From Candidatus Komeilibacteria bacterium (lineage in GTDB: Bacteria > Patescibacteriota > Patescibacteriia > UBA1558 > GWA2-36-10), in NCBI GenBank assembly GCA_018656065.1, contig JABHZY010000024.1, positions 75,980 to 139,979 on the forward strand: 64,000 bases of DNA, given 5' to 3'. The position numbers and the translations under genes are program-made. The notes beneath the pieces were generated by a model, which had not been told where the DNA came from, ran no database searches, and saw nothing but the letters and a program-made list of their open reading frames with translations. Position 1 is the first letter of the stretch; each line of letters begins with the position of its first letter. Below are positions 4,944-61,648 of the stretch, piece by piece.

Positions 4944-6033
4944 TATCTAATTTTTTATAGATCTCCAAAATCTCTTCTGACATCTTACGCCATGAATATT
5001 TATCTATTTGTTTATAGCCTGTTCTGATTAAATTATTACGCAAGTCATTATCATTTATAATCTCAAACATTTTCTTTTTAAGATCTTCTCTGTCCTTAGG
5101 ATTAAAATATAATGCGCTGTGTCCTAATACTTCTGGTAAAGAGCTAGAATCACTAGATAAAACTGGCAAGCCATAACTCATAGCTTCTAATGGTGGTAAG
5201 CCAAAGCCTTCATATAAAGATGGAAAAATATAAGCTCTAGCATTTTTATAATAACTATCTAACTTATCATCTGCTACGTAACCAGTAAAAATAACATTAG
5301 GACAATCAATGTCTTTAGCTAATTTTTCATAAAAATAATTTTTTTGTCCTACTAATATTAAATAATATTCTGAATGTTTCTGCCAAAATTCTTTAAAAAC
5401 TTCTATCAAAAATTCTAAATTTTTATGAGGATAAGCATTGCCAATATAAAGAAAATAGTTTTGTGGTAAATTAAAGGGCTCTTTTTGGCTACTAAAATAT
5501 GTACTAACTCCTTCATAAATCACCTCAATTTTTTTAGCCTCTCTATCTTCTAATTGGAAATATTCTTTGATATCTTTAGCTGTAAATTTAGAAACTGCTA
5601 TTATTTTTTTAGAATTTTTAACAGCATTTCTAATCACTTGTTTATAAAACCAATACTTTATCTTAAACCAAAAGGTATTTAAAGTACTAGCTTTACGACT
5701 TGGAAATTTAGTCATTATTAAATCATGGATGGTTACTACAAAATTACCACTATAAAAAATTGGCACGTTAAAATGTGGAAAATGGACTAGATCTGGCTTT
5801 AATTTATATAAAACCCAAGGTAATACAATTTGCTCTTTTATTCCATACCAATGACAGTCACAAATTTTAATTTCAAAATTATCCGGCAAATTAATTTCAG
5901 GAGTTTCTTTAAAAAGTAAAATATAATGATTTGATTTATCTAATTTTTTAAGTTCACTTAAAAACTCTTGATTATAACGACCAAGTCCACCGGGTTTTGT
6001 ACCAAAAATTCTAAAATCAATTACAATTCTCAT
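4936..6033 (-). CDS. GT4-family glycosyltransferase
   Basis: C-terminal EGFGLPPLEAMSYGLPVLSS motif (GT-B, retaining GT4 signature). Confidence 0.8.
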   Translation of the reverse strand: MRIVIDFRIFGTKPGGLGRYNQEFLSELKKLDKSNHYILLFKETPEINLPDNFEIKICDCHWYGIKEQIVLPWVLYKLKPDLVHFPHFNVPIFYSGNFVVTIHDLIMTKFPSRKASTLNTFWFKIKYWFYKQVIRNAVKNSKKIIAVSKFTAKDIKEYFQLEDREAKKIEVIYEGVSTYFSSQKEPFNLPQNYFLYIGNAYPHKNLEFLIEVFKEFWQKHSEYYLILVGQKNYFYEKLAKDIDCPNVIFTGYVADDKLDSYYKNARAYIFPSLYEGFGLPPLEAMSYGLPVLSSDSSSLPEVLGHSALYFNPKDREDLKKKMFEIINDNDLRNNLIRTGYKQIDKYSWRKMSEEILEIYKKLDNV

Positions 6034-7151
6034 TTTTTATAGCTATTAAATAAATCTAACATTTGTTGAGCTTGGTTTTCCCACTTAGGAACCTTAAAAC
6101 TACTAGCCGATTTTTTAAACTGTTTAATTAATTTTTCATCCTCAGTTAAAAACTTCAAAGCTTTATATATATCACTAATGTTATAAGGATCAACGTATAA
6201 AGCCTGTTGTTTGTTCATTTCCGGAAGGGCTGTTTTATAACTTACTATTACTGGTGTTTTATAAGAAATTGCTTCCATTGGTGGAAAACCAAAGCCTTCA
6301 TATAAAGAGGGCCAAATTAAACCCTGACTCATATAATACAAAGCATCTTTAGCTGGAGATTCTACATAATTTAAATAATGAATAAAAGGTCTTTTTTTAA
6401 TTTTTTGTAACAATTTTCTATAAACCCAACCCTTCTTACCAACTACTACCAAATGCACATCTGGAGATTCTAAATGATATCTATCAAAAGCTTTGATGAT
6501 ACTCTCTATATTTTTACGAGGCTCAAGTGTGCCTAAATAAATAAAAAACTTATCTGGAAGATTAAAATCTTTTAGTATATCTCTAGCTCTATCCTCATTC
6601 ATTGGAATAGAATTAATACCAGGATTAATTATAGTAATTTTATCTTCAGTTAAAGGAAAAAAACGCATTAAATCTCTTTTAGTATTGCCAGAAACAGCTA
6701 TAATTTTATCAGCCTGTCTAACCAATTTTTCTACATTTACCATTTTATGCCAATATCTTCTTCTTAAAGAATAAAATTCTCTACTATGTAAAAAAGATAA
6801 ATCATGAACTGTCAAAATCATTGGATATTTTTTTGATAAATTACAAAAATTAATATTAGGCATCCAAAAAAGATCTATGTCTTTAAAAAAATTTTCACAA
6901 ATATTAGAATTAATTCCCAATAATAAATTTAAATTCAAAACTTTATTAGCAATTGGAATATGAAAATGTTTAACATTTGATTGATTAAAATCTAATTGCA
7001 TATAAGGGTCCTTCTTCAAGCCCGAACTGAATAAATAATAATTATTTTCTTTATCCAATTCTAAAAGATGAGTAATAGCATAATAAATATATTTGCCAAT
7101 ACCTGTTAACTTTTTATTTCCTAAAGCTCTGATGTCTATACCTATATTCAT
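6030..7151 (-). CDS. GT4-family glycosyltransferase
   Basis: EGFGFPPMEAISYKTPVIVS motif; overlaps neighbours by 4 nt (operon). Confidence 0.8.
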   Translation of the reverse strand: MNIGIDIRALGNKKLTGIGKYIYYAITHLLELDKENNYYLFSSGLKKDPYMQLDFNQSNVKHFHIPIANKVLNLNLLLGINSNICENFFKDIDLFWMPNINFCNLSKKYPMILTVHDLSFLHSREFYSLRRRYWHKMVNVEKLVRQADKIIAVSGNTKRDLMRFFPLTEDKITIINPGINSIPMNEDRARDILKDFNLPDKFFIYLGTLEPRKNIESIIKAFDRYHLESPDVHLVVVGKKGWVYRKLLQKIKKRPFIHYLNYVESPAKDALYYMSQGLIWPSLYEGFGFPPMEAISYKTPVIVSYKTALPEMNKQQALYVDPYNISDIYKALKFLTEDEKLIKQFKKSASSFKVPKWENQAQQMLDLFNSYKK

Positions 7152-8245
7152 AAAGCTTCAATCAAGTTAAGTATCTTTTCCTTAAATCTTTTTTCATCAA
7201 ATTTTTTGGCATGCTCTCTAATAATTTTAGAATCAAATTTAGCATGATCAAATCTTAATATCTTGTGAGCTAAGGATTCCCAAGTCTGTTCTTCAAAAAA
7301 CAAACCAGTCTGATTATCAATCACTGTCTCTAATGCACCGCCCTTAGCATAAGCTATTACTGGCCTACCAGAAGACATTGCTTCTAAAGCAGATATACCA
7401 AAATCTTCTAATTGCGGATAAATAAATGCCTTACAACGCGCTAAATGATAATTCCTTTCTTTATCTGATACCTCACCTAAAAATTCAATGTTGGAATGAG
7501 CCATCTTTTTTAATTTTCTAAGTTCAGAACCTCCTCCAATTATTTTAAGTGGTAATTTCAAATTATTAAAAGCCTGAATTGCCAAATCTACTTTTTTATA
7601 TGGTCTAAGACGAGAAACTATAAGATAATAATCTTCTACTTCCTCCGAGATATGAAAATCGGCTACTCGAACTGGTGGATGGATAACTACTGAATTTTTT
7701 TTATAATGTTTTTTTATTTTATTAGCTATAAAATGTGAATTAGCTATAAAATGATCTACTTCTTGAGCTTTAGAAAAATCCCAATTTTGTAATTTATTTA
7801 AAACTTTAGGTAAAAAATTCTTTAATAATTTTCCTTCTGGTAAATTACCTATATATTCTTCTTTATCATCCCACAAATATCTAGTCGGTGCATGACAATA
7901 ACAAATATGCTTATTATTATGCCCTGTTTTTACGCCTTTAACAAAAGCCGAAGATGAAGAAATAATTAAATCATAACTACTTAAATCTGTTTTCTCCCAA
8001 ACCCTAGGCATTAACACTAAAAAATATTTAAAAAGTTTATTAATACCTGGAATTTTCTGTAAATTAGAAGTGACTATATTTTTCTGATTGAGTATTTTTT
8101 TAGTTATTTTAGGATCATTTATTAAAGTAAAAATAGGCGCTTGAGGATTTAAAGTAGCTAAAGCTACTAGAACTTTTTCAGCTCCACCTATTTGAAACAA
8201 ATGATCATGAGCCAGGGCAATTTTTTTCATATTATCCTTGATCAC
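7148..8245 (-). CDS. GT4-family glycosyltransferase
   Basis: EDFGISALEAMSSGRPVIAYAKGG motif; GGSE N-terminal motif. Confidence 0.75.
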   Translation of the reverse strand: MIKDNMKKIALAHDHLFQIGGAEKVLVALATLNPQAPIFTLINDPKITKKILNQKNIVTSNLQKIPGINKLFKYFLVLMPRVWEKTDLSSYDLIISSSSAFVKGVKTGHNNKHICYCHAPTRYLWDDKEEYIGNLPEGKLLKNFLPKVLNKLQNWDFSKAQEVDHFIANSHFIANKIKKHYKKNSVVIHPPVRVADFHISEEVEDYYLIVSRLRPYKKVDLAIQAFNNLKLPLKIIGGGSELRKLKKMAHSNIEFLGEVSDKERNYHLARCKAFIYPQLEDFGISALEAMSSGRPVIAYAKGGALETVIDNQTGLFFEEQTWESLAHKILRFDHAKFDSKIIREHAKKFDEKRFKEKILNLIEAL

Positions 8246-9620
8246 CTTTAATAACTGCCATTGGAGTTTTTAATAAGATTATCAAATCAAGTAGTACAGA
8301 CCAATTTTCTATATAAAAAATATCTAACTTAGCTTCTTCACTAAAATCTAAATTAGCTCGTCCAGAAACTTGAGCCATGCCAGTAATACCTGGTTTGATA
8401 AATAATAATTTCTTATAACCTTTTTGATATTTATCAACTTCAGCTGGTTCGTGTGGTCGTGGACCCACTAAGCTCATACTAGCCCCTAAAACATTAATAA
8501 GTTGTGGTAATTCATCTAGACTGGCTCGCCTTAAAAATTTACCAACTTTTGTAACTCTGGGATCATCTTTCATTTTAAAAAGCGGACCATCAACTCTTTC
8601 GTTATATTGCATCACTTCTGATTTCATTTTATCAGCATCTTTAACCATAGAACGAAATTTATACATTTTAAAAATTTTTCCTTTATTACCGACTCTAGAC
8701 AATTTCACAAAAATTGGTCCTTGAGAATCCAATTTAATAGCTATGGCTATAATTATAAACACTGGTGATAAAATTATTAACAATAAAATAGCTACTATTA
8801 AATCAAATGTTCTTTTATAAACATGACGCCAACCATCTAGCGGCGTACCTTGAATTTCAATAACAGGTAAACCAGCTACGGAATTTATATTAAAATGTAA
8901 ACTTTGAGTTTGAAAAAGACTGGCCACATATCGAAGATTCAAATGATTCTCCTGACAATAAGTTAATAAATTAAGAGCTTCTTTTTTTTCTATACTAGAG
9001 TCTGTCTGAATCAAATTATCAATTTGTTTATTTTTTATTTGACTTACAATATCTGATGAATTTTCTAAATCCCCCAAACTATTAAACTCCGCTATAATTT
9101 TATAACCCATCTGAGGACTTTTATTATAAGTATCTACAATTGCTTGGCGACTAATATCGCTGCCTAATACTATCACTTTAGATAGCCCGTGCCCTTTTTT
9201 GAGAAAATAATTTCGAATAGCAAAAACTATTATTCTAGATATAAAAAGATAAATAATAGTAAGTCCCCAAGAAAAAATTATAATAAAACGAGAAGAAAAT
9301 AATTCCTTCTGCCAAAAAATAGCTAAAATAATTATAATGCCAACTGTAGATACTCCTGTAAAAATTTTTGGTAATTCTTTAGCCAACTTTTTATCTCGCA
9401 TAGCATAAAAACCACTCATAGCAAAAACTATAATAGACATAAAAGCCACCTTAAAAGCTAAGCTAGCAAACTCTGATAAAGGCATTTCATAAAATACTGG
9501 CCTTATCTCTTCTATTGATTCTGAAAATCTTAAAAAATAAGCCGATAAAGCAGCTAGAACTACTATTGCATAATCAATAGGCACTAAAGCAATATTTACA
9601 ATAAAATTAGCTTTTTTCAT
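8232..9620 (-). CDS. undecaprenyl-phosphate sugar phosphotransferase (WbaP/CpsE-like priming transferase)
   Basis: N-terminal TM helices plus C-terminal sugar-transferase signature DELPQLINVLGASMSLVGPRP. Confidence 0.85.
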   Translation of the reverse strand: MKKANFIVNIALVPIDYAIVVLAALSAYFLRFSESIEEIRPVFYEMPLSEFASLAFKVAFMSIIVFAMSGFYAMRDKKLAKELPKIFTGVSTVGIIIILAIFWQKELFSSRFIIIFSWGLTIIYLFISRIIVFAIRNYFLKKGHGLSKVIVLGSDISRQAIVDTYNKSPQMGYKIIAEFNSLGDLENSSDIVSQIKNKQIDNLIQTDSSIEKKEALNLLTYCQENHLNLRYVASLFQTQSLHFNINSVAGLPVIEIQGTPLDGWRHVYKRTFDLIVAILLLIILSPVFIIIAIAIKLDSQGPIFVKLSRVGNKGKIFKMYKFRSMVKDADKMKSEVMQYNERVDGPLFKMKDDPRVTKVGKFLRRASLDELPQLINVLGASMSLVGPRPHEPAEVDKYQKGYKKLLFIKPGITGMAQVSGRANLDFSEEAKLDIFYIENWSVLLDLIILLKTPMAVIKGDQG

Positions 9621-9677
9621 AGTATAGATATAATATCATTTGCCCCTTATTTAGTAAATATCTATTAACTATTATCC

Positions 9678-9707
9678 TTGACAAAACTAGTAAAATATTG
9701 TATATAT
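9678..9707 (+). promoter_or_regulatory. sigma70-type promoter for rnpB
   Basis: TTGACA at 9678-9683, 17-18 nt spacer, TG + TATATA/ATATAT -10 around 9699-9707, about 10 nt upstream of the RNase P RNA 5' end. Confidence 0.55.
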
Positions 9708-9716
9708 TAAACATAA

Positions 9717-10060
9717 GGTTTAAATAGACCGAGATGATTGCTAATTATAGCGTAAAGCTATAATTAGAGGAAAGTCCGAACACCACAAAAAAGATAGTTG
9801 GTAACGCCAACCGTTTCTAATGCAAATTAGGGATAGGACAAGTGCAACAGAGAATATTCCTTCCTTCGGGATAAGGGTGAAAATGTCAGATAATTAGCTG
9901 ACACGTCAACATGGTGACATGTAGAAAGAGGTAAACTTCTATCCGGTGTAAGGCCAAATAGGCCCTTCGGGGCGGGTAGGCTGCTTGAGATTACAAGCAA
10001 TTGTAATCCTAGATAGATGATCATCCTAGACAGAATTCGGCTTATGAGGTCTATTTAAGC
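9717..10060 (+). ncRNA. rnpB: RNase P RNA (bacterial type)
   Basis: Conserved P4 halves GAGGAAAGUCCG and ACAGAAUUCGGCUUAU, AGGGUGAAA element, P3 hairpin (ctaattatagc/gctataattag), and a 13/14-nt P1 pairing between 9717-9730 and 10047-10060. Confidence 0.8.
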
Positions 10061-30992: not shown

Positions 30993-31376
30993 ATGAGTGA
31001 AAAAGATCTAATAAAAAAAGCTGGTTTAAAAATTACATCTGCCAATATGTCTGTTTTTAAGGCCTTAAAAAATAACCACAACCCCCTATCTGCGAAAGAA
31101 ATTTGGAATGGACTTAATAAAAAAATAAACCTTGTTTCTATATATAGAATATTAGAACGTTTTTCATTAGCTGGACTAATTAATGAAGATACTATTAATC
31201 ATGCTCGTCAAGAAAAAGTATATCACCTCTCCTCTGCTCATCATCACCATATGTTTTGTCAATCTTGTGAAAAAATATTTTGCATACCTTGTAAGTTAAA
31301 TATCGACTTACCCAAAAATTTTAAATTAATAAAACATCAAATCCAACTAACTGGATTATGTAATAAATGTAAATAA
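30993..31376 (+). CDS. zur: Fur-family metalloregulator (likely Zur)
   Basis: Winged helix (SIYRILERFSLAGLI), HHHH and CxxC...CxxC metal sites. Immediately upstream of the ZIP transporter. Confidence 0.75.
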   Translation: MSEKDLIKKAGLKITSANMSVFKALKNNHNPLSAKEIWNGLNKKINLVSIYRILERFSLAGLINEDTINHARQEKVYHLSSAHHHHMFCQSCEKIFCIPCKLNIDLPKNFKLIKHQIQLTGLCNKCK

Positions 31377-31380
31377 AAAT

Positions 31381-32271
31381 ATGTTATTAATCTACATCAT
31401 CGTGGCCACAGTAGCAGTCAGCCTATTGTCACTTATCGGCCTTAGTTTATTCTTCAAAAAAAGATACTCTCAAAAAATAATGGAAGCAACTGTATCTTTA
31501 GCTGCGGCTGTGCTATTAGGAAATGTATTTTTCCATATGTTACCTGAAATAGTAGAAGAATCTCATCATGAAAACTTTGATTTTCAATCTTTGGCTTTTT
31601 GGATGCTTGGTTCAATTGTATTTTTCTTCTTTACTGAAAAATATTTACATTGGCATAATTGTCATCATCATCAAGATCATGGCAATAATAAACACCAACA
31701 CAATGAAAAATGTACTCACCCTATGGGTATAAATATTTTAATCGGCGATGGTCTACACAATTTAATTGATGGTATGGCCATTGCAGCAGCTTTTATGCTT
31801 GATGTTCAATTGGGCGTCTTGGCAACCATTGCTATAGCTCTACACGAAATTCCTCAAGAAATTGGTGATTTTAGTTTGCTTCTATACGCAGGTTATTCTA
31901 AAACCAAGGCATTGCTATGGAATTTGATTTCTGCTCTAATGGCTGTCTTAGGAGGAATAATTACTTATTTCTTTGCCCAAAGTGGTGATACACAACTAAT
32001 ACTGACTTCTATTGCAGCTGGTAGTTTTTTATATATTGCCATGAGCGATATTATGCCCCATCTTCATAATTCAAAAAATAATCATTATAAGGTGCAGGTT
32101 TTATGGTTTGTTATAGGTTTAATATTAATATATTCTATTAATCAATTTATTAGCTTTGGACATACACACGAAGCTATTCACGAACCTAATAATCAAGCTA
32201 TTCACGAACATATCGACGATCATGAGCACGAAGAAAATCATGAAGATGAACATGATTATGACCATCAATAA
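31381..32271 (+). CDS. ZIP-family zinc transporter (ZupT-like) with His-rich loops
   Basis: 8 TM helices, HEIPQEIGDF signature, His-rich segments. Confidence 0.8.
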   Translation: MLLIYIIVATVAVSLLSLIGLSLFFKKRYSQKIMEATVSLAAAVLLGNVFFHMLPEIVEESHHENFDFQSLAFWMLGSIVFFFFTEKYLHWHNCHHHQDHGNNKHQHNEKCTHPMGINILIGDGLHNLIDGMAIAAAFMLDVQLGVLATIAIALHEIPQEIGDFSLLLYAGYSKTKALLWNLISALMAVLGGIITYFFAQSGDTQLILTSIAAGSFLYIAMSDIMPHLHNSKNNHYKVQVLWFVIGLILIYSINQFISFGHTHEAIHEPNNQAIHEHIDDHEHEENHEDEHDYDHQ

Positions 32272-32293: not shown

Positions 32294-32319
32294 AAGGACC
32301 TTTAAATAGGTCCTTTTTA
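32294..32319 (+). terminator. rho-independent terminator after the ZIP transporter
   Basis: aaggacc/ggtcctt 7-bp stem, T-run. Confidence 0.6.
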
Positions 32320-32321
32320 TA

Positions 32322-32350
32322 TTGACAAAATAACTAAAATATGATATAAT
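32322..32350 (+). promoter_or_regulatory. consensus sigma70 promoter (TTGACA-N17-TATAAT)
   Basis: TTGACA 32322-32327, TATAAT 32345-32350; drives the first gene of the GC-rich cassette. Confidence 0.6.
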
Positions 32351-32410
32351 AATATATCTTCAATTGGAATTCGCCGATGAAGATATACCCTGTCAAATGG
32401 AGCAAACAAT

Positions 32411-32872
32411 ATGAATACGATGAAAATCGTGCTCTCCCTGATTATCATGCTGATTTTCACGGGCGTCGTCCTGGCTGATGACGAATCGCTCAGGCCCGAA
32501 CTGAACAACGCCGTCCAGCAGCTGGAAAGCAACTGGAACAGCATGACCCCCTACCAGCGTGGTGATCAAGAGCAGGAAATCGCCAGATTGGTCCTACTGC
32601 CAAAGGACTATATCGGAACCATGTTCAGGTACCACTACCTGTACACCGATACGGCCTACTTCTCCGAATGCCCCGAGGAACGGAGAGATAGGATGTGGAA
32701 CTATATCCTTGAACGGCAGAGGTGGGATACGCATGATATGCAGGTGTTGGCCAACAACTTCTACATTGAAGGCTACCACTTCGAAGCTAGGTTGTTGTTC
32801 AACCACAACCTCGATAGGCTCCAACCTATCAATCCCAACCTCGAACCCGAGGACACCTTGGAACTAGAGTAG
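32411..32872 (+). CDS. secreted protein of the GC-rich cassette, unknown function
   Basis: Signal peptide MNTMKIVLSLIIMLIFTGVVLADD. GC-rich codon usage unlike the host. Confidence 0.5.
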   Translation: MNTMKIVLSLIIMLIFTGVVLADDESLRPELNNAVQQLESNWNSMTPYQRGDQEQEIARLVLLPKDYIGTMFRYHYLYTDTAYFSECPEERRDRMWNYILERQRWDTHDMQVLANNFYIEGYHFEARLLFNHNLDRLQPINPNLEPEDTLELE

Positions 32873-32900
32873 CAGCCACCAACGCTGCTTCACCCTCTCG

Positions 32901-32930
32901 GATCCCGACCGGAAATCGGGATCTTTTATT
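32901..32930 (+). terminator. rho-independent terminator
   Basis: GATCCCGA/TCGGGATC 8-bp stem plus T-run. Confidence 0.6.
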
Positions 32931-32947
32931 TGTTCTCAGACTTACTA

Positions 32948-32976
32948 TTGACAAAAATAAATATACATGCTAGTAT
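32948..32976 (+). promoter_or_regulatory. sigma70-like promoter (TTGACA-N17-TAGTAT)
   Basis: Same architecture as the tRNA-Gln promoter at 35407. Confidence 0.5.
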
Positions 32977-33025
32977 GACTTGAAACATTAAAATTTCATT
33001 CAATGAAGCTTTGAAGAACTGTCTG

Positions 33026-33071
33026 TATTTGGACGCTTGGACAGTTTGGAGCTAGTAGCGTAACCGGCATT
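33026..33071 (+). repeat. structured leader repeat, copy 1
   Basis: Sequence tatttggacgcttggacagtttggagctagtagcgtaaccggcatt. Contains TTGGAC-gc-TTGGAC direct half-sites. Flanking aactgtc/gacagtt arms form a hairpin. Confidence 0.5.
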
Positions 33072-33195
33072 GTGTAATGAATCTCAACAAATGAGCTTGA
33101 TTTACTTAAAATGCCTGGATGGGTATTTTTTTGTATTTTAAGTTCTTTATACAACATAATAGGAAAAACATCAGTGAGGCAATGAAAAACCGCCT

Positions 33196-33285
33196 ATATT
33201 TGGACGCTTGCACCCGGTAAATTATTCTTAGGAATAAATAAACCGAGGTCAAGGGTGGTTTGGAGCTAGTAGCGTAACCGGCATT
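33196..33285 (+). repeat. structured leader repeat, copy 2 (with a 47-nt stem-loop insertion caccc...gggtg)
   Basis: Same 5' (tatttggacgcttg) and 3' (gtttggagctagtagcgtaaccggcatt) blocks as copy 1. Confidence 0.5.
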
Positions 33286-33310
33286 TAGATGCTTGTTATA
33301 TTTAGTTAAG

Positions 33311-33333
33311 ACGCCTTCTCTGAGGCGTTTTTG
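33311..33333 (+). terminator. intrinsic terminator / attenuator immediately upstream of the REC gene
   Basis: acgcct-tctctg-aggcgt hairpin plus TTTTT, 28 nt before ATG 33361. Confidence 0.55.
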
Positions 33334-33360
33334 TGTTTCCCCCAACAGGAGGTGCCTGCA

Positions 33361-33771
33361 ATGGCCCGAGTTTTCATTTTTGACAACGATCCGACCATGG
33401 CTCTGACTATGGCCTTTGGTCTGGAATCTGAAGGGCACGAAGTCCTGACCAACATCGAGACCAACGAATCTGGCGGACATCACGCTGAGCTGAACACTAC
33501 CAAGGTGATTCGCAAAATGCTCGAGTGGAAACCGGTCCCCGATGTAATTATCATCGAGTGCTTGGAAGTCGACAGCGAACGTTTCATGAGCATCCTCCAG
33601 GGTGCTGGTATGCAGCACCTGACGGTCCTAGCGATGTCACATCGCTATAAGAACAACACTCGCCTGCAACGACTGATGAGTGAGTACGGCGCCTTCTGCA
33701 TGCCGAAACCACTCAACGTCAATAATCTTGTGGAATATGTTCAGGAGCTCTCGACAAGTCCGGTTGGCTGA
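33361..33771 (+). CDS. receiver-only response regulator (CheY-like REC domain, no output domain)
   Basis: RBS GGAGG. N-terminal ARVFIFDNDP and further REC-like motifs. The track ORF 33331-33771 shares this frame. Confidence 0.65.
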   Translation: MARVFIFDNDPTMALTMAFGLESEGHEVLTNIETNESGGHHAELNTTKVIRKMLEWKPVPDVIIIECLEVDSERFMSILQGAGMQHLTVLAMSHRYKNNTRLQRLMSEYGAFCMPKPLNVNNLVEYVQELSTSPVG

Positions 33772-33836
33772 TTTAGCACAGCTTCTCTGCAAAGCTGGGG
33801 GGAATTCCCTAGACGAACGGAGAGGAGGTGATAATT

Positions 33837-33959
33837 ATGTTCAACGCTCTGACTTCGAGGATGATGAAGGGTAAGGGAGCCGTCGTGGTGTGCACGCTGT
33901 GTGTCATCGGCTTCCAGACCCTGAATCTGATTGATCTGTTCTGGTGGTTGCGCAAGTAA
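33837..33959 (+). CDS. micro-ORF A (40 aa), hydrophobic, C-terminal LIDLFWWLRK
   Basis: Strong RBS GGAGAGGAGGTG 6 nt upstream of the start. Paralog of micro-ORF B. Conserved hairpin 33984-34001 follows the stop. Confidence 0.4.
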   Translation: MFNALTSRMMKGKGAVVVCTLCVIGFQTLNLIDLFWWLRK

Positions 33960-34133
33960 CCTCTATGAAGTGTTAACCCCTGTGTCACTCTAAGGAGTGG
34001 CCAACCGGGAGCCTGTCAAAATGCTAATCCCCCCAGCGATTGGCAGGCCCCCACCCTCCTTACCTATAGATTAACTAATATAACTTCTATAGCTGGGAAC
34101 ATATATCTCAAGCTTATAAGAGGAGGTTACACC

Positions 34134-34199
34134 ATGGACTTTGTTTATATCGTAACGGGCTTGTCCCTGATCGATTTGTGGTGGTGGTTACGCAAGTAA
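34134..34199 (+). CDS. micro-ORF B (21 aa), C-terminal LIDLWWWLRK with three consecutive Trp codons
   Basis: RBS AGGAGG. Same C-terminal motif and same downstream hairpin (34223-34240) as micro-ORF A. Confidence 0.4.
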   Translation: MDFVYIVTGLSLIDLWWWLRK

Positions 34200-34299
34200 C
34201 CTAGTTGAGCACTAACTCCTGCGTCACTCTAAGGAGTGACCAACCGGGGATTTGTCGAATAGTCACGTTCCCAGTTATCGACGAATCCCCATCCCCGAC

Positions 34300-34322
34300 C
34301 TTACTCACATGGTGTGAGTAAG
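34300..34322. promoter_or_regulatory. perfect 10-bp inverted repeat (CTTACTCACA-tgg-TGTGAGTAAG), candidate operator
   Basis: Lies 28 nt upstream of the lipoprotein ATG. No T-run follows, so it is not a terminator. Confidence 0.4.
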
Positions 34323-34349
34323 TAACTCCACCTCACAGGAGGAAAAATC

Positions 34350-35057
34350 ATGAAGAAGTACGCATTTCTGACCCTGAGTATCCTGGCGCTTCTGGCCCTG
34401 GGTGCTTGCAGTGACACCGACAAGATCACCGATGTCCAATCGGACAACAACAACCAGCCGACCATTACGGCCGGCGAAATCCACACCGAGTTCCTCGAAC
34501 TGCTCTACGCCGAGAATGACTTCGCCAAGCGCGAGAAGTCAAGCCAGGTCTCGAGCGCCACTACGACGGCCAACGAGATTCTGATTCGTCACGGCCTGAA
34601 GCCGATGTCGGAAGCCGATGTCGAAACGGAACTCCAGCGGGGTCGCGAAATGGCTCAGATGGACCCTGTTCAGTTGATTGAGAGCATCTTGACTCCCGAA
34701 GAACTGATCTGGTGGGATCGTTTCTCTTGGGAAGCCAAAGTTTTCGACGCCAAGAAGGTCTACCGGCAACACTGCAACCTGTACGGTGCCCCTACCGAAG
34801 GCAGCATGCTGAGCAACCTGTTGGACATGAGCCTGTCCTCGGCCGAGTTTTGGGATGTCTACCGTGAAAAGGACATTCCGACTTACCAGAACCCCTACAT
34901 ACCGATGACCAAAAGCTGGCGCGGTGTGCTCCGTTTCGTGGTGGCCGTAGTCGTCGATGGTGGTGCAGGAGCAGCGTGTGCTGCTGGTGGCCCCATCGTA
35001 TCAGGTGTTGTTGGCGGCCTGGCTAGCGCCGGTGCTGACGGCATGATTTTCGACTAG
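34350..35057 (+). CDS. lipoprotein with Gly/Ala-rich hydrophobic C-terminal tail
   Basis: Lipobox LALGAC. C-terminal VVAVVVDGGAGAACAAGGPIVSGVVGGLASAGADG. GC-rich. Confidence 0.55.
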   Translation: MKKYAFLTLSILALLALGACSDTDKITDVQSDNNNQPTITAGEIHTEFLELLYAENDFAKREKSSQVSSATTTANEILIRHGLKPMSEADVETELQRGREMAQMDPVQLIESILTPEELIWWDRFSWEAKVFDAKKVYRQHCNLYGAPTEGSMLSNLLDMSLSSAEFWDVYREKDIPTYQNPYIPMTKSWRGVLRFVVAVVVDGGAGAACAAGGPIVSGVVGGLASAGADGMIFD

Positions 35058-35099
35058 CCACTCGCCTTCAGAGATTCTAACCTTAAACCCTTTAAGGGG

Positions 35100-35336
35100 G
35101 TGAATGCTATGCAGGATTACCTGTTAATCATTCTCTTTTGCATCATTGGTTCCGTCGTCGGTAACTTGGTGCTGAAGAATGATCGTTTTTCCCGTTTCTT
35201 AGGAATAGGCCTAGGATTGTCACCGGCATTTGCTATCATCGAGCATATGCCACTCCTCCTACTGGCCGCCCTGCTCTTCGGTCCGCTGCTTGCTTGGCGA
35301 CGACATCATGTTCGTTGTCAATCTAGCCCGACCTAG
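35100..35336 (+). CDS. small two-TM membrane protein (likely start ATG 35109)
   Basis: SD AAGGGGG 9 nt upstream of ATG 35109. Hydrophobic 70-75 aa. Confidence 0.4.
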   Translation: MNAMQDYLLIILFCIIGSVVGNLVLKNDRFSRFLGIGLGLSPAFAIIEHMPLLLLAALLFGPLLAWRRHHVRCQSSPT

Positions 35337-35355
35337 AGTAGGTCTCAAAGCCCAG

Positions 35356-35395
35356 AAGGACCCGTCACTGCATATGCACACGGGTCCTTTTCTCT
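35356..35395 (+). terminator. strong rho-independent terminator ending the GC-rich cassette
   Basis: 10-bp stem aaggacccgt/acgggtcctt plus T-run. Confidence 0.7.
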
Positions 35396-35406
35396 TATCT
35401 ATAATA

Positions 35407-35435
35407 TTGACAAATTGTCCAAAAAATAGTAGTAT
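35407..35435 (+). promoter_or_regulatory. tRNA-Gln promoter (TTGACA-N17-TAGTAT)
   Basis: TTGACA 35407-35412; -10 at 35430-35435. Lies 22 nt upstream of the tRNA. Confidence 0.5.
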
Positions 35436-35456
35436 ATTACTGCTTTTATTAAACCT

Positions 35457-35530
35457 TCGGAGATCGTCTAATGGTAGGACACCTGGTTTTGGTCCAGGCA
35501 ATCGGGGTTCGATCCCCTGTCTCCGAGCCA
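35457..35530 (+). tRNA. tRNA-Gln (anticodon UUG), CCA encoded
   Basis: Manual fold: acceptor TCGGAGA/TCTCCGA, D-arm GTCT/GGAC, anticodon stem CCTGG/CCAGG with loop TTTTGGT, T-arm CGGGG-TTCGATC-CCCTG, 3' GCCA; 74 nt. Confidence 0.75.
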
Positions 35531-60387: not shown

Positions 60388-61648
60388 ATATTAATTCTTT
60401 AGCACGCTCAAGTTGTGGATCTATATCAGCTTCATAATCTTCTATTGTCAAATCAATTTCAAAATCAGGTAGAATACCCTCACCTTCTATAGTCCGTCCA
60501 TTTGGAGTAAGCCAACGAGCTACAGTTAATTTAATTGAAGAGTCATCTTTAAGTTCCATTAATTGCTGAACTGAACCTTTACCAAAAGTAGTCATTCCAA
60601 CCACCTCGGCCATTTCATAATCTTGCAATGCTCCTGCTAAAATCTCAGAGGCTGAAGCAGATCCCTCATTAACTAAAACTATTGTTTTTAAATGTGATAA
60701 ACTATTTTTCTTAGTAGTTTTATAATCTCTATCATCTCTTTTATCAGAAAAAGTTTCTCTGACTACTGTAGAATTTTGTTCTAGCCAATAACTAGCAATA
60801 TCAACTGAGGTAGACAAATAACCACCTGGATTATTTCTAACATCGATAATTATACCCTCTGGATTATCTTTTAATACATCTTGGACTACTTTAGCAAAAC
60901 GCTCATCTGTATCATCATTAAAATGTGTAATCTCTACAATAGCAATGTTATCTTCTAATCTGTAAATAACACTAGGAATATCTATTTTATCTCTAATAAT
61001 ACTAACATCTCTTGGTACTTCTGCTCCTTTTGAAAATATAGTTAATATTACTTCTACACCTTTATCTCCCCTAATATGAGTGACTGCCTCGTTAGAGCTC
61101 ATAGCAGTGATATCTAGCCCATCTACAGCCAAAATCCTGTCACCAGACTTTAATCCTGCTAGATCAGCTGGCGTACCAGCTAAAGGAGCAATAACTACAA
61201 TAAATCCTTCGCGACGTCCAATCTCTGCGCCAATACCAAAGAAACTACCTTCTAGTTCTTGAGAAAACTCTTCAGTTAATTCTGGATCAAAAAATAAAGT
61301 GTGAGGATCCCCTAAAGCATCTACCATGCCAGAAATAGCTCCATAAAATAAATCCTGATCATCTATCTCAGATTTTTCTAAATATTCATCATGAAGCAAA
61401 TTCCAAACCTCTTCAAATAAATCAATATCTATTTCATCTTGTTCAAAAAAAATATTCTTTAATTCTTCAGAAGTCTGCTGTATCACTTGTTCAGATGTCT
61501 GAGGTTCTTTATATTGAGTGCCGGCTGCCATACCAGCTACAAAAAAAGCTAGTAACAAAAAAATATAGGCATAAATTTTAGATGTTTTATACCATTTAGC
61601 TTCTTTCTTATTATCTACAAATTGATTATTGTCACTAAATTGATCCAT
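60380..61648 (-). CDS. ctp: carboxyl-terminal processing protease (S41)
   Basis: N-terminal TM, PDZ domain (GLKSGDRILAVDG), S41 catalytic region (TFGKGSVQ). Confidence 0.8.
   Translation of the reverse strand: MDQFSDNNQFVDNKKEAKWYKTSKIYAYIFLLLAFFVAGMAAGTQYKEPQTSEQVIQQTSEELKNIFFEQDEIDIDLFEEVWNLLHDEYLEKSEIDDQDLFYGAISGMVDALGDPHTLFFDPELTEEFSQELEGSFFGIGAEIGRREGFIVVIAPLAGTPADLAGLKSGDRILAVDGLDITAMSSNEAVTHIRGDKGVEVILTIFSKGAEVPRDVSIIRDKIDIPSVIYRLEDNIAIVEITHFNDDTDERFAKVVQDVLKDNPEGIIIDVRNNPGGYLSTSVDIASYWLEQNSTVVRETFSDKRDDRDYKTTKKNSLSHLKTIVLVNEGSASASEILAGALQDYEMAEVVGMTTFGKGSVQQLMELKDDSSIKLTVARWLTPNGRTIEGEGILPDFEIDLTIEDYEADIDPQLERAKELIFE

Follow-up and report, generated by a model that had tools for sequence, protein, structure and literature searches.

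What governs the expression of a gene for a solitary receiver-like protein, when that gene is preceded by several hundred nucleotides (nt) of untranslated, structured RNA? The question is raised by a locus on contig JABHZY010000024.1 of Candidatus Komeilibacteria bacterium (assembly GCA_018656065.1). Positions 75,980-139,979 of the forward strand were analysed; this stretch of 64,000 nt is called the window below, and positions without another reference are those of the window. An initial annotation, made from the sequence alone, had described a promoter followed by a leader carrying two copies of a structured repeat (33026-33071 and 33196-33285) and ending in a terminator. It had proposed tandem riboswitches or attenuators, which it could not match to a known riboswitch class, or, alternatively, binding sites for a response regulator. 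In all likelihood, the leader consists of two complete class II cyclic di-GMP (c-di-GMP) riboswitches arranged in series, each with its own terminator, before an operon that begins with the receiver-like gene, and they would most likely act as OFF switches. The functional statements made here are derived from sequence, covariation and thermodynamic folding.

Two conserved class II c-di-GMP aptamers

Both copies are class II c-di-GMP aptamers of the known family RF01786. In an Rfam/Infernal scan, each aligns to the full model (Table 1; the gathering threshold is 53.5 bits and E-values were computed over the whole 64-kb window), and RF01786 outscores the other families of its clan, the GAG and GCG variants, on both. 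The class II c-di-GMP riboswitch was reportedly described by Lee et al. in 2010. In the two copies, all pairs of helices P1, P2 and P3 are canonical, an ACGCU/AGCGU pseudoknot is found, and the core motifs GA.GC...GAA, UAU.UGGACGCUU and GGAGCUAGUAGCGUAACCGGC are present, the set of invariant core nucleotides being complete. Both aptamers are expected to bind c-di-GMP.

The repeats noticed at first are parts of a larger unit, and their similarity reaches further in the 5′ direction than had been described. The segments 33044-33071 and 33258-33285 are identical at 28/28 positions; upstream, 33000-33042 matches 33171-33213 at 79%. Within the repeat, TTGGACGCTT corresponds to the loop strand of the pseudoknot, of which ACGCU pairs with the AGCGU of "gtagcgtaa", and ggagctagtagcgtaaccggc to the conserved 3′ core of the aptamer. 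The arms aactgtc and gacagtt, thought to flank the first copy, are real but form the P3 stem inside the aptamer.

Relatives of the locus (numbered with the prefix L below) were sought by scanning metagenome contigs for the core motif GAGCYAGTAGCGTAACCG. More than 119 loci were obtained, ten of which were then scanned with Rfam; almost all of these ten hold two or three aptamers. In locus L006, three c-di-GMP-II aptamers (71.7, 65.2 and 66.7 bits) occupy the corresponding place. A homologous receiver-like gene follows two or three aptamers in L006, L042, L049, L058, L016, L110, L083, L096 and L098, and many of these loci, from L042 onwards in this list, have ZIP upstream and the receiver-like gene downstream. 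The leaders of L001-L005, five contigs encoding an identical protein, are 100% identical to that of the window and carry no covariation signal.

Covariation was assessed on an alignment of 25 aptamers of the clade, using the Rfam structure supplemented with the pseudoknot and a shuffle control (n=500). Infernal finds a conserved structure in the homologues, and P2, P3 and the pseudoknot covary. Across the alignment, 84.6% of the cells assigned to pairs are indeed paired, versus 72.2% in shuffles and 32-47% after sliding of the partners. A covariation score of 0.429 was obtained, versus 0.196, with 0/500 shuffles as high, the relatedness of duplicated units being not fully corrected in this comparison. 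P3 is paired at 95-96%, with compensatory changes in 8/8 pairs, and P2 at 97%. The inner part of P1 is conserved or covarying; the outer part, paired at 65% overall, is poorly aligned. The pseudoknot is paired at 100%, with compensatory changes in 2/5 pairs (ACGCC/GGCGU, GCGCU/AGCGC). Because the structure is conserved and covarying in homologues, the RNA is considered to be a genuine conserved aptamer pair.

Terminators, predicted antiterminators and predicted polarity

The promoter read as TTGACA-N17-TAGTAT is found where it had been placed. It matches at 10/12 positions, has in addition a TG extension, and is the best in a 3-kb neighbourhood; its -35 box and TG-extended -10 box are kept in L102 and L006, at equal distance from aptamer 1. 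Transcription would start near 32983. The leader, estimated at about 380 nt at first, measures about 378 nt and has no credible open reading frame (ORF) on the + strand and no credible leader peptide. The terminator recognized at its end, a hairpin with T5 located 28 nt before the start codon, is confirmed; the annotation had missed a second one, with a run of seven U, after the first copy. Each aptamer has its own terminator, in place of the single one first supposed for both, and hence two expression platforms stand upstream of one gene behind a single strong promoter, both units being probably carried by one transcript. The proposal of tandem riboswitches acting through termination is in this respect upheld. 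Both terminators are located downstream of the aptamer 3′ strand and do not overlap it; in units of the window type, the separate terminator lies 5-35 nt downstream of the aptamer.

How would ligand binding be transmitted to these terminators? In unit 1, the 3′ strand of the aptamer can pair with the 5′ arm of terminator 1. This duplex (-10.3 kcal/mol) is the best partner among 24 units, and the sequences involved are kept in L006, L102 and L053. The stem of terminator 1 is also kept in relatives and its loop differs (GAAA in L006, GGAG in L053). The unconstrained minimum free energy (MFE) fold of unit 1 (-33.1 kcal/mol) contains the antiterminator and no terminator, and when the aptamer is enforced (-25.5 kcal/mol) the terminator forms. 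For terminator 1, the pair probability goes from 0.00 to 0.97 once the aptamer is sequestered instead of free; the duplex probably functions as an antiterminator. In unit 2, the 5′ arm and loop of the terminator, GCCUUCUCUGA, are able to pair with the 5′ segment of aptamer 2, UCAGUGAGGC (33171-80). The antiterminator of this unit combines GAGGC/GCCUU and UCAG/CUGA (-7.5 kcal/mol) and its conformer is the MFE fold of an RNA ending at 33335.

The arrangement of unit 2 is the more widespread one. In most other units of the clade, the terminator 5′ arm is complementary to, and covaries with, the aptamer 5′ segment, made of the 5′ strands of P1 and P2. Explicit co-changes of aptamer and terminator are seen in the pairs AAUGAGAUGU/ACAUCUCAUU, UGAGAC/GUCUCA, GAAGC/GCUUC and AAGUGAGGCA/UGCCUCACUU. 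The pairing of the 5′ segment with its own terminator 5′ arm has a mean energy of -9.70 kcal/mol versus -7.65 kcal/mol with non-cognate arms, and 0/20000 permutations were as low, in a test made without correction for relatedness among units. Pairing of the aptamer 3′ strand with the terminator 5′ arm was also considered as a clade-wide rule and rejected, cognate partners having no advantage over non-cognate ones (p about 0.9); it is limited to unit 1 of the window and its orthologues. In 18/24 units of the clade, the predicted probability of the terminator is under 0.5 with a free aptamer and exceeds 0.5 with a sequestered one. This is taken as an OFF signature, since the terminator is suppressed with the aptamer free and formed with the aptamer sequestered.

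In the resulting model, RNA polymerase would have to pass both terminators to reach the operon. Without c-di-GMP, segments of the aptamers would pair with the terminator 5′ arms, namely the 3′ strand CCGGCAUU in unit 1 and the 5′ strand (U)GAGGC in unit 2 and most relatives, and this antitermination would allow read-through. With c-di-GMP bound, these segments would be locked in the aptamers, the terminators would form and the operon would be shut off. As the units are in series, their read-through probabilities would multiply, giving a tighter, steeper and pseudo-cooperative response. An OFF polarity of the whole leader is favored by the folding results, though with moderate confidence, unit 1 giving a clear prediction and unit 2 a weak one.

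Several points weigh against this model. With the terminator-containing fold of unit 2 within about 1.3 kcal/mol of the antiterminator conformer, the probability of terminator 2 is 0.71 with the aptamer free and 0.93 with the aptamer sequestered, a weak predicted switch. Aptamer 2, with 49.7 bits, misses the gathering threshold of its family. The thermodynamic folds do not take into account the pseudoknot, the ligand or co-transcriptional kinetics, and the uncorrected relatedness mentioned above bears on the permutation test. The characterized class II riboswitches of Clostridium difficile are ON switches (PMC11477304). Finally, a motif search for GGDEF, EAL, HD-GYP and PilZ in the window and 18 related loci returned only a spurious GGEEF in acetate kinase; with no GGDEF, EAL or HD-GYP gene in these sequences, the source of the ligand is not seen there.

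One alternative is the same tandem c-di-GMP-II riboswitches with an ON polarity, where c-di-GMP would promote read-through and the operon would be induced at high c-di-GMP. The transcriptional class II switches characterized by experiment in PMC11477304 are all ON; about 71/111 metagenomic aptamers with the core motif have a terminator stem built on the AACCGG strand, which is the classic ON design; and terminator 2 is predicted to form in the larger part of the free ensemble, which weakens the thermodynamic argument for that unit. However, the terminators of the window do not overlap the aptamer 3′ strand, so that a folded aptamer cannot block them. A helix breaking up a terminator exclusively in the folded state of the aptamer was not found, and the covarying complementarity joins aptamer strands to the terminator 5′ arm, as expected from an OFF logic. 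An ON polarity is on balance unlikely, while deserving more credit than the other alternatives discussed below.

Table 1. Features of the leader and of its surroundings in the window
Feature	Position	Strand	Basis or description
153-amino-acid secreted protein gene, upstream neighbour	32411-32872		
Intrinsic terminator of the upstream gene	32900-32932 (stem 32900-32924, then T-run)	+	Terminator scan; sets that gene apart from the leader
Sigma-70-type promoter	32948-32976	+	TTGACA 32948-53, 17-nt spacer, TGcTAGTAT extended -10 (TAGTAT 32971-76)
Aptamer 1, c-di-GMP-II riboswitch	32995-33078	+	Rfam RF01786, 74.3 bits, full model 1-84, E 7e-15
Aptamer 1 helices	P1 32995-33005/33068-33078; P2 33007-09/33051-53; P3 33016-23/33040-47		
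Aptamer 1 pseudoknot	33033-37/33057-61		ACGCU/AGCGU
Antiterminator 1 (predicted)	33064-33118	+	CCGGCAUU (33064-71, aptamer core/P1 3′ strand) with AAUGCC-GG (33110-18, terminator 5′ arm); encloses linker hairpin
Intrinsic terminator 1	33108-33132 (hairpin 33108-33129)	+	AAAAUGCCU, loop GGAU, GGGUAUUUU, U7 33126-33132
Aptamer 2, c-di-GMP-II riboswitch with inserted hairpin	33166-33291	+	RF01786, 49.7 bits, full model 1-84, E 6.5e-8
Aptamer 2 helices	P1 33169-76/33282-91; P2 33178-80/33265-67; P3 33187-94/33254-61		
Inserted hairpin in aptamer 2 P3 loop	33207-33253 (about 44 nt inserted, 33210-33253)	+	Just 3′ of the pseudoknot strand
Intrinsic terminator 2	33308-33332 (hairpin to 33331)	+	AAGACGCCUU, loop CUCU, GAGGCGUUUU, U5 33328-33332
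Ribosome-binding site and receiver-like gene	33348-33771	+	GGAGG 33348-52; ATG 33361, stop 33769-71; 136 amino acids, single domain
Probable co-transcribed cargo	33837-35336	+	Sequence reading, ORFs
Small peptides ending LIDL(F/W)WWLRK	33837-33959 and 34134-34199	+	
235-amino-acid lipoprotein	34350-35057	+	Signal peptide and Cys; Gly/Ala-rich hydrophobic C-terminal tail
75-amino-acid membrane peptide	35109-35336	+	
Hairpin with U-run after cargo	about 35358-35391	+	

The second aptamer and other readings of the leader

The low score of aptamer 2 is explained by an insertion in the loop of P3: the model has 1 nt where this copy has 44 nt, and this is its sole large departure from RF01786. A stem-loop of 47 nt had been proposed at this place. 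A hairpin is indeed predicted (-15.6 kcal/mol, z -4.4, for 33207-33253 with P3 enforced), and the size of the insertion comes down to 43-44 nt, as deduced from the spacing of the repeats, which differs between their two segments (214 versus 171 nt), and from the Rfam alignment. The arms caccc and gggtg, taken as the stem of the insertion, can pair, but the CACCC/GGGUG helix overlaps the 3′ strand of P3 and would be an alternative to it, as judged from only two sequences, those of the window and of L096.

It may be asked whether this insertion has simply broken a duplicate. In that case only aptamer 1 would work, copy 2 would be decaying, and its terminator would be constitutive or a simple attenuator. 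The score below threshold goes in this direction, as do the weak predicted switching amplitude and the modest antiterminator of unit 2, which is surpassed by 21 non-cognate partners. Yet the invariant core nucleotides and the pairs of P1, P2, P3 and the pseudoknot are all intact. The insertion of L096 is homologous to that of aptamer 2 and its stems are kept by compensatory changes, ACC/GGU becoming GCC/GGC and CACCC/GGGUG becoming UGCCC/GGGCA. Seven further aptamers of the clade carry unrelated hairpins of 27-74 nt at exactly the same site of the P3 loop. From these two observations, the insertion is interpreted as an optional peripheral helix rather than as damage. Insertion-bearing relatives score 42.7-59.7 bits against RF01786, and the sub-threshold scores of such copies are attributed to their P3-loop insertions. 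Moreover, the identity of the 28-nt 3′ core with that of copy 1 speaks for selection or recent conversion rather than decay, and a constitutive terminator directly before the gene (the pair probabilities of terminator 2 are about 0.9) would silence it. The decay of copy 2 is thus improbable.

Still less probable is the idea that each aptamer-terminator unit mainly constitutes a stand-alone RNA of about 150 nt, acting in trans or as a c-di-GMP sponge. Both terminators would release short transcripts, and a weak promoter-like sequence, TCAACA-17-TAAAAT, precedes unit 2 at 33084-33112. Against this, the place directly upstream of homologous receiver-like genes is kept in at least 10 loci, and the covariation of terminator and aptamer is what characterizes an expression platform acting in cis. 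In addition, the third aptamer of L006 (5898-5980 of this locus, in an array spanning 5385-5980) lacks a terminator and lies right against the Shine-Dalgarno sequence of the receiver gene, an arrangement that suggests translational control. Between aptamers 2 and 3 of L006 there is a small ORF (5668-5871; 67 amino acids when started at TTG).

The view that the repeats would be protein-binding half-sites, as envisaged from the TTGGAC-GC-TTGGAC of copy 1, or chance or decayed coding repeats, is hardly credible, as the TTGGAC placed first is the strand of the pseudoknot and the other one belongs to P3 as its 3′ strand, which reads TTGCAC in copy 2 and varies freely in relatives, in a compensatory manner, while still complementing the P3 5′ strand, as the downstream protein has no DNA-binding domain, as the E-values (7e-15 and 6.5e-8) exclude chance, and as no conserved ORF covers the repeats.

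The receiver-like gene, its cargo and known systems

The two-riboswitch leader precedes a gene whose product had been described as a receiver-only regulator. The protein does have a CheY-like (beta-alpha)5 fold, as deduced from modelling. Its family profile retrieves receiver domains of the PDB (E 3e-6), and its AlphaFold model (predicted local distance difference test, pLDDT, 85.1; predicted template modelling score, pTM, 0.82) superposes on the RR468, PhoB and DivK receivers with template modelling (TM) scores of 0.7-0.8. The top 50 Foldseek matches of the model are all receivers (TM 0.74/0.81 to 3dge_C; 0.74-0.81 to RR468 and PhoB). The model also shows an additional beta-hairpin, formed by residues 32-42 and placed between beta-2 and alpha-2. 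The description has to be amended on two counts. The 136-amino-acid protein has no Pfam match, Response_reg included, and the phospho-acceptor position at the end of beta-3 is occupied by Glu66, with Glu also in close relatives of the protein (pDviiiEc versus pDLIVLDi), the Asp being retained only in the more distant L042, L083 and L098. The structural neighbour 2jb9 is entitled as a constitutively active PhoB D10A/D53E double mutant. There is no DNA-binding domain in the protein and no kinase nearby. Such a receiver would need no phosphorylation, and its level, as set by the riboswitches, would be its input.

Behind the receiver-like gene, two small peptides, a lipoprotein and a membrane peptide are probably co-transcribed with it, since a terminator scan of the + strand between 33771 and 35336 gave no terminator-like site and the first candidate is the hairpin following the cargo. 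A third aptamer, or another RNA family, was looked for with Rfam in 33760-34360, and nothing credible came up. The peptides of the cargo are hydrophobic, have 21-40 amino acids and all end in ...L(A/S)LIDL(F/W)WWLRK*. They have no family match and are kept downstream of the receiver-like gene in three species, those of the window, of L006 (about 6430-6511) and of L042 (about 472-530, - strand). Searches of Pfam, NCBIfam and PADLOC with the cargo proteins returned nothing meaningful, and the lipoprotein has no match in any of them; a homologue of the lipoprotein (46% identical) is encoded in L043/L115, where a tandem aptamer pair stands about 150 nt ahead of it. A local duplication (33927-34020 and 34167-34259) comprises a peptide 3′ end and a 47-nt non-coding element (83% identical) with the hairpin gtcactctaaggagtgac. 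Neither L006 nor L042 has kept this element, and Rfam gives no match to it.

How does this leader compare with known systems? With the c-di-GMP-II family (RF01786; Cdi2 switches, PMC11477304), it shares the P1-P2-P3 architecture with pseudoknot, the full core and a terminator platform. It differs from the classic design in that the terminator is separate and downstream and, through pairing of its 5′ arm with aptamer strands, predicts an OFF switch, whereas the classic terminator is built on the AACCGG strand and gives an ON switch; in the extra P3-loop hairpin of aptamer 2; and in its host, which belongs to the Patescibacteria and not to Clostridia or Deinococcota. Tandem arrangements of this class have been described, with 59 doublets and 9 triplets (Sherlock, Breaker and co-workers, 2022, RNA Biol, PMC9481103), which in Paraclostridium and its relatives mostly precede the gene of a surface-anchor protein (COG4932). 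As in these doublets and triplets, complete riboswitches with their own platforms are in series and a pseudo-cooperative, steeper response is expected. In contrast, the present leader precedes a receiver-like gene accompanied by unannotated cargo as its target, in a lineage of the candidate phyla radiation (CPR), and in relatives more aptamers are found inside the operon. The triple-tandem c-di-GMP-I riboswitch Bc3-5 of Bacillus thuringiensis (PMC4759541) also places several complete switches acting by termination in one 5′ leader, but its aptamers are of the non-homologous GEMM-I class and its host is different. The cmrRST switch of C. difficile (PMC11477304) resembles the present case as a class II switch before a signal-transduction operon beginning with response-regulator genes. 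However, cmrRST comprises DNA-binding regulators and a kinase and is switched ON, whereas here a stand-alone Glu receiver with no kinase nearby would be switched OFF.

Thus, the RNA is not a new RNA class: its riboswitch class is known, and arrangements of this type have been published. What is new is the host phylum, the gene association, the probable OFF polarity and the GC-rich cargo; the P3-loop hairpin is a further variant feature. Judging from this locus, class II switches of OFF polarity would exist in nature. No report of natural riboswitches or c-di-GMP effectors in Patescibacteria/CPR was found in the literature searched, and diguanylate cyclase genes have been found enriched in metagenome-assembled genomes (MAGs) of sediment-attached ultra-small groundwater organisms (Patescibacteria, DPANN) (PMC9938205). 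Regulation in Patescibacteria being almost uncharted, a conserved RNA effector before a receiver-like gene would represent a testable c-di-GMP regulon. It would also give this group, for which inducible genetic tools are lacking, a native expression element under ligand control. As a tentative picture, to which we give somewhat less than even credence, it may be imagined that a clade of Patescibacteria reads c-di-GMP by means of arrays of two, three or more class II switches, rewired to OFF by covarying antiterminators and many of them with a P3-loop hairpin, which would gate a cassette of foreign composition, about 20 points above the genome in GC, made of the Asp-to-Glu receiver, the LIDLFWWLRK peptides and the lipoprotein. 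Transcription controlled by c-di-GMP would then replace phosphorylation as the input of the receiver, and a programme of attachment versus free living, or of host interaction, may be under the control of the cassette in these episymbionts.

The host genome is that of a Komeilibacteria-like member of the Patescibacteria, which are ultra-small bacteria. A 100%-identical protein is labelled "Candidatus Komeilibacteria bacterium" at NCBI, and the GTDB representative with a 71%-identical homologue, the MAG of L006, is a "Patescibacteria group bacterium". Several independent metagenomes contain the identical receiver-like protein, on 23 contigs and always in the same AT-rich context (PTAC, PfkB, SpoU, FUR, ZIP), and for this reason the locus is not regarded as an assembly chimera.

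Some minor features of the neighborhood may finally be mentioned. Directly upstream (30993-32271) are the genes of a regulator of the FUR family and of a ZIP metal transporter that has a His-rich tail; this pair adjoins the riboswitch cassette also in L006 and L102, and ZIP alone does so in L058 and L110. The TTGACA-N17-TAGTAT promoter-like motif occurs again at 35407-35435, ahead of tRNA-Gln. In L006, a serine-recombinase-like gene on the opposite strand overlaps a tRNA (within 8192-9787). Elsewhere in the window, the segments 9722-10060 and 60531-60727, listed together, gave a bacterial RNase P class A RNA (215.8 bits) and a match to Rickettsia sRNA47 that is below threshold (37.6 bits versus a gathering threshold of 60, E 4e-6). 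The region 32300-35450 forms a block of 40-53% GC in a genome of about 30% GC and ends at tRNA-Gln (35457-35530). Its intergenic promoters and leaders stay AT-rich, and its composition is not ameliorated despite 70% protein identity. GC-rich cargo also lies behind c-di-GMP-II aptamers in L006, L058, L110, L016, L042, L043 and L096, at a site that is syntenic, with ZIP upstream, in L006, L058 and L110.

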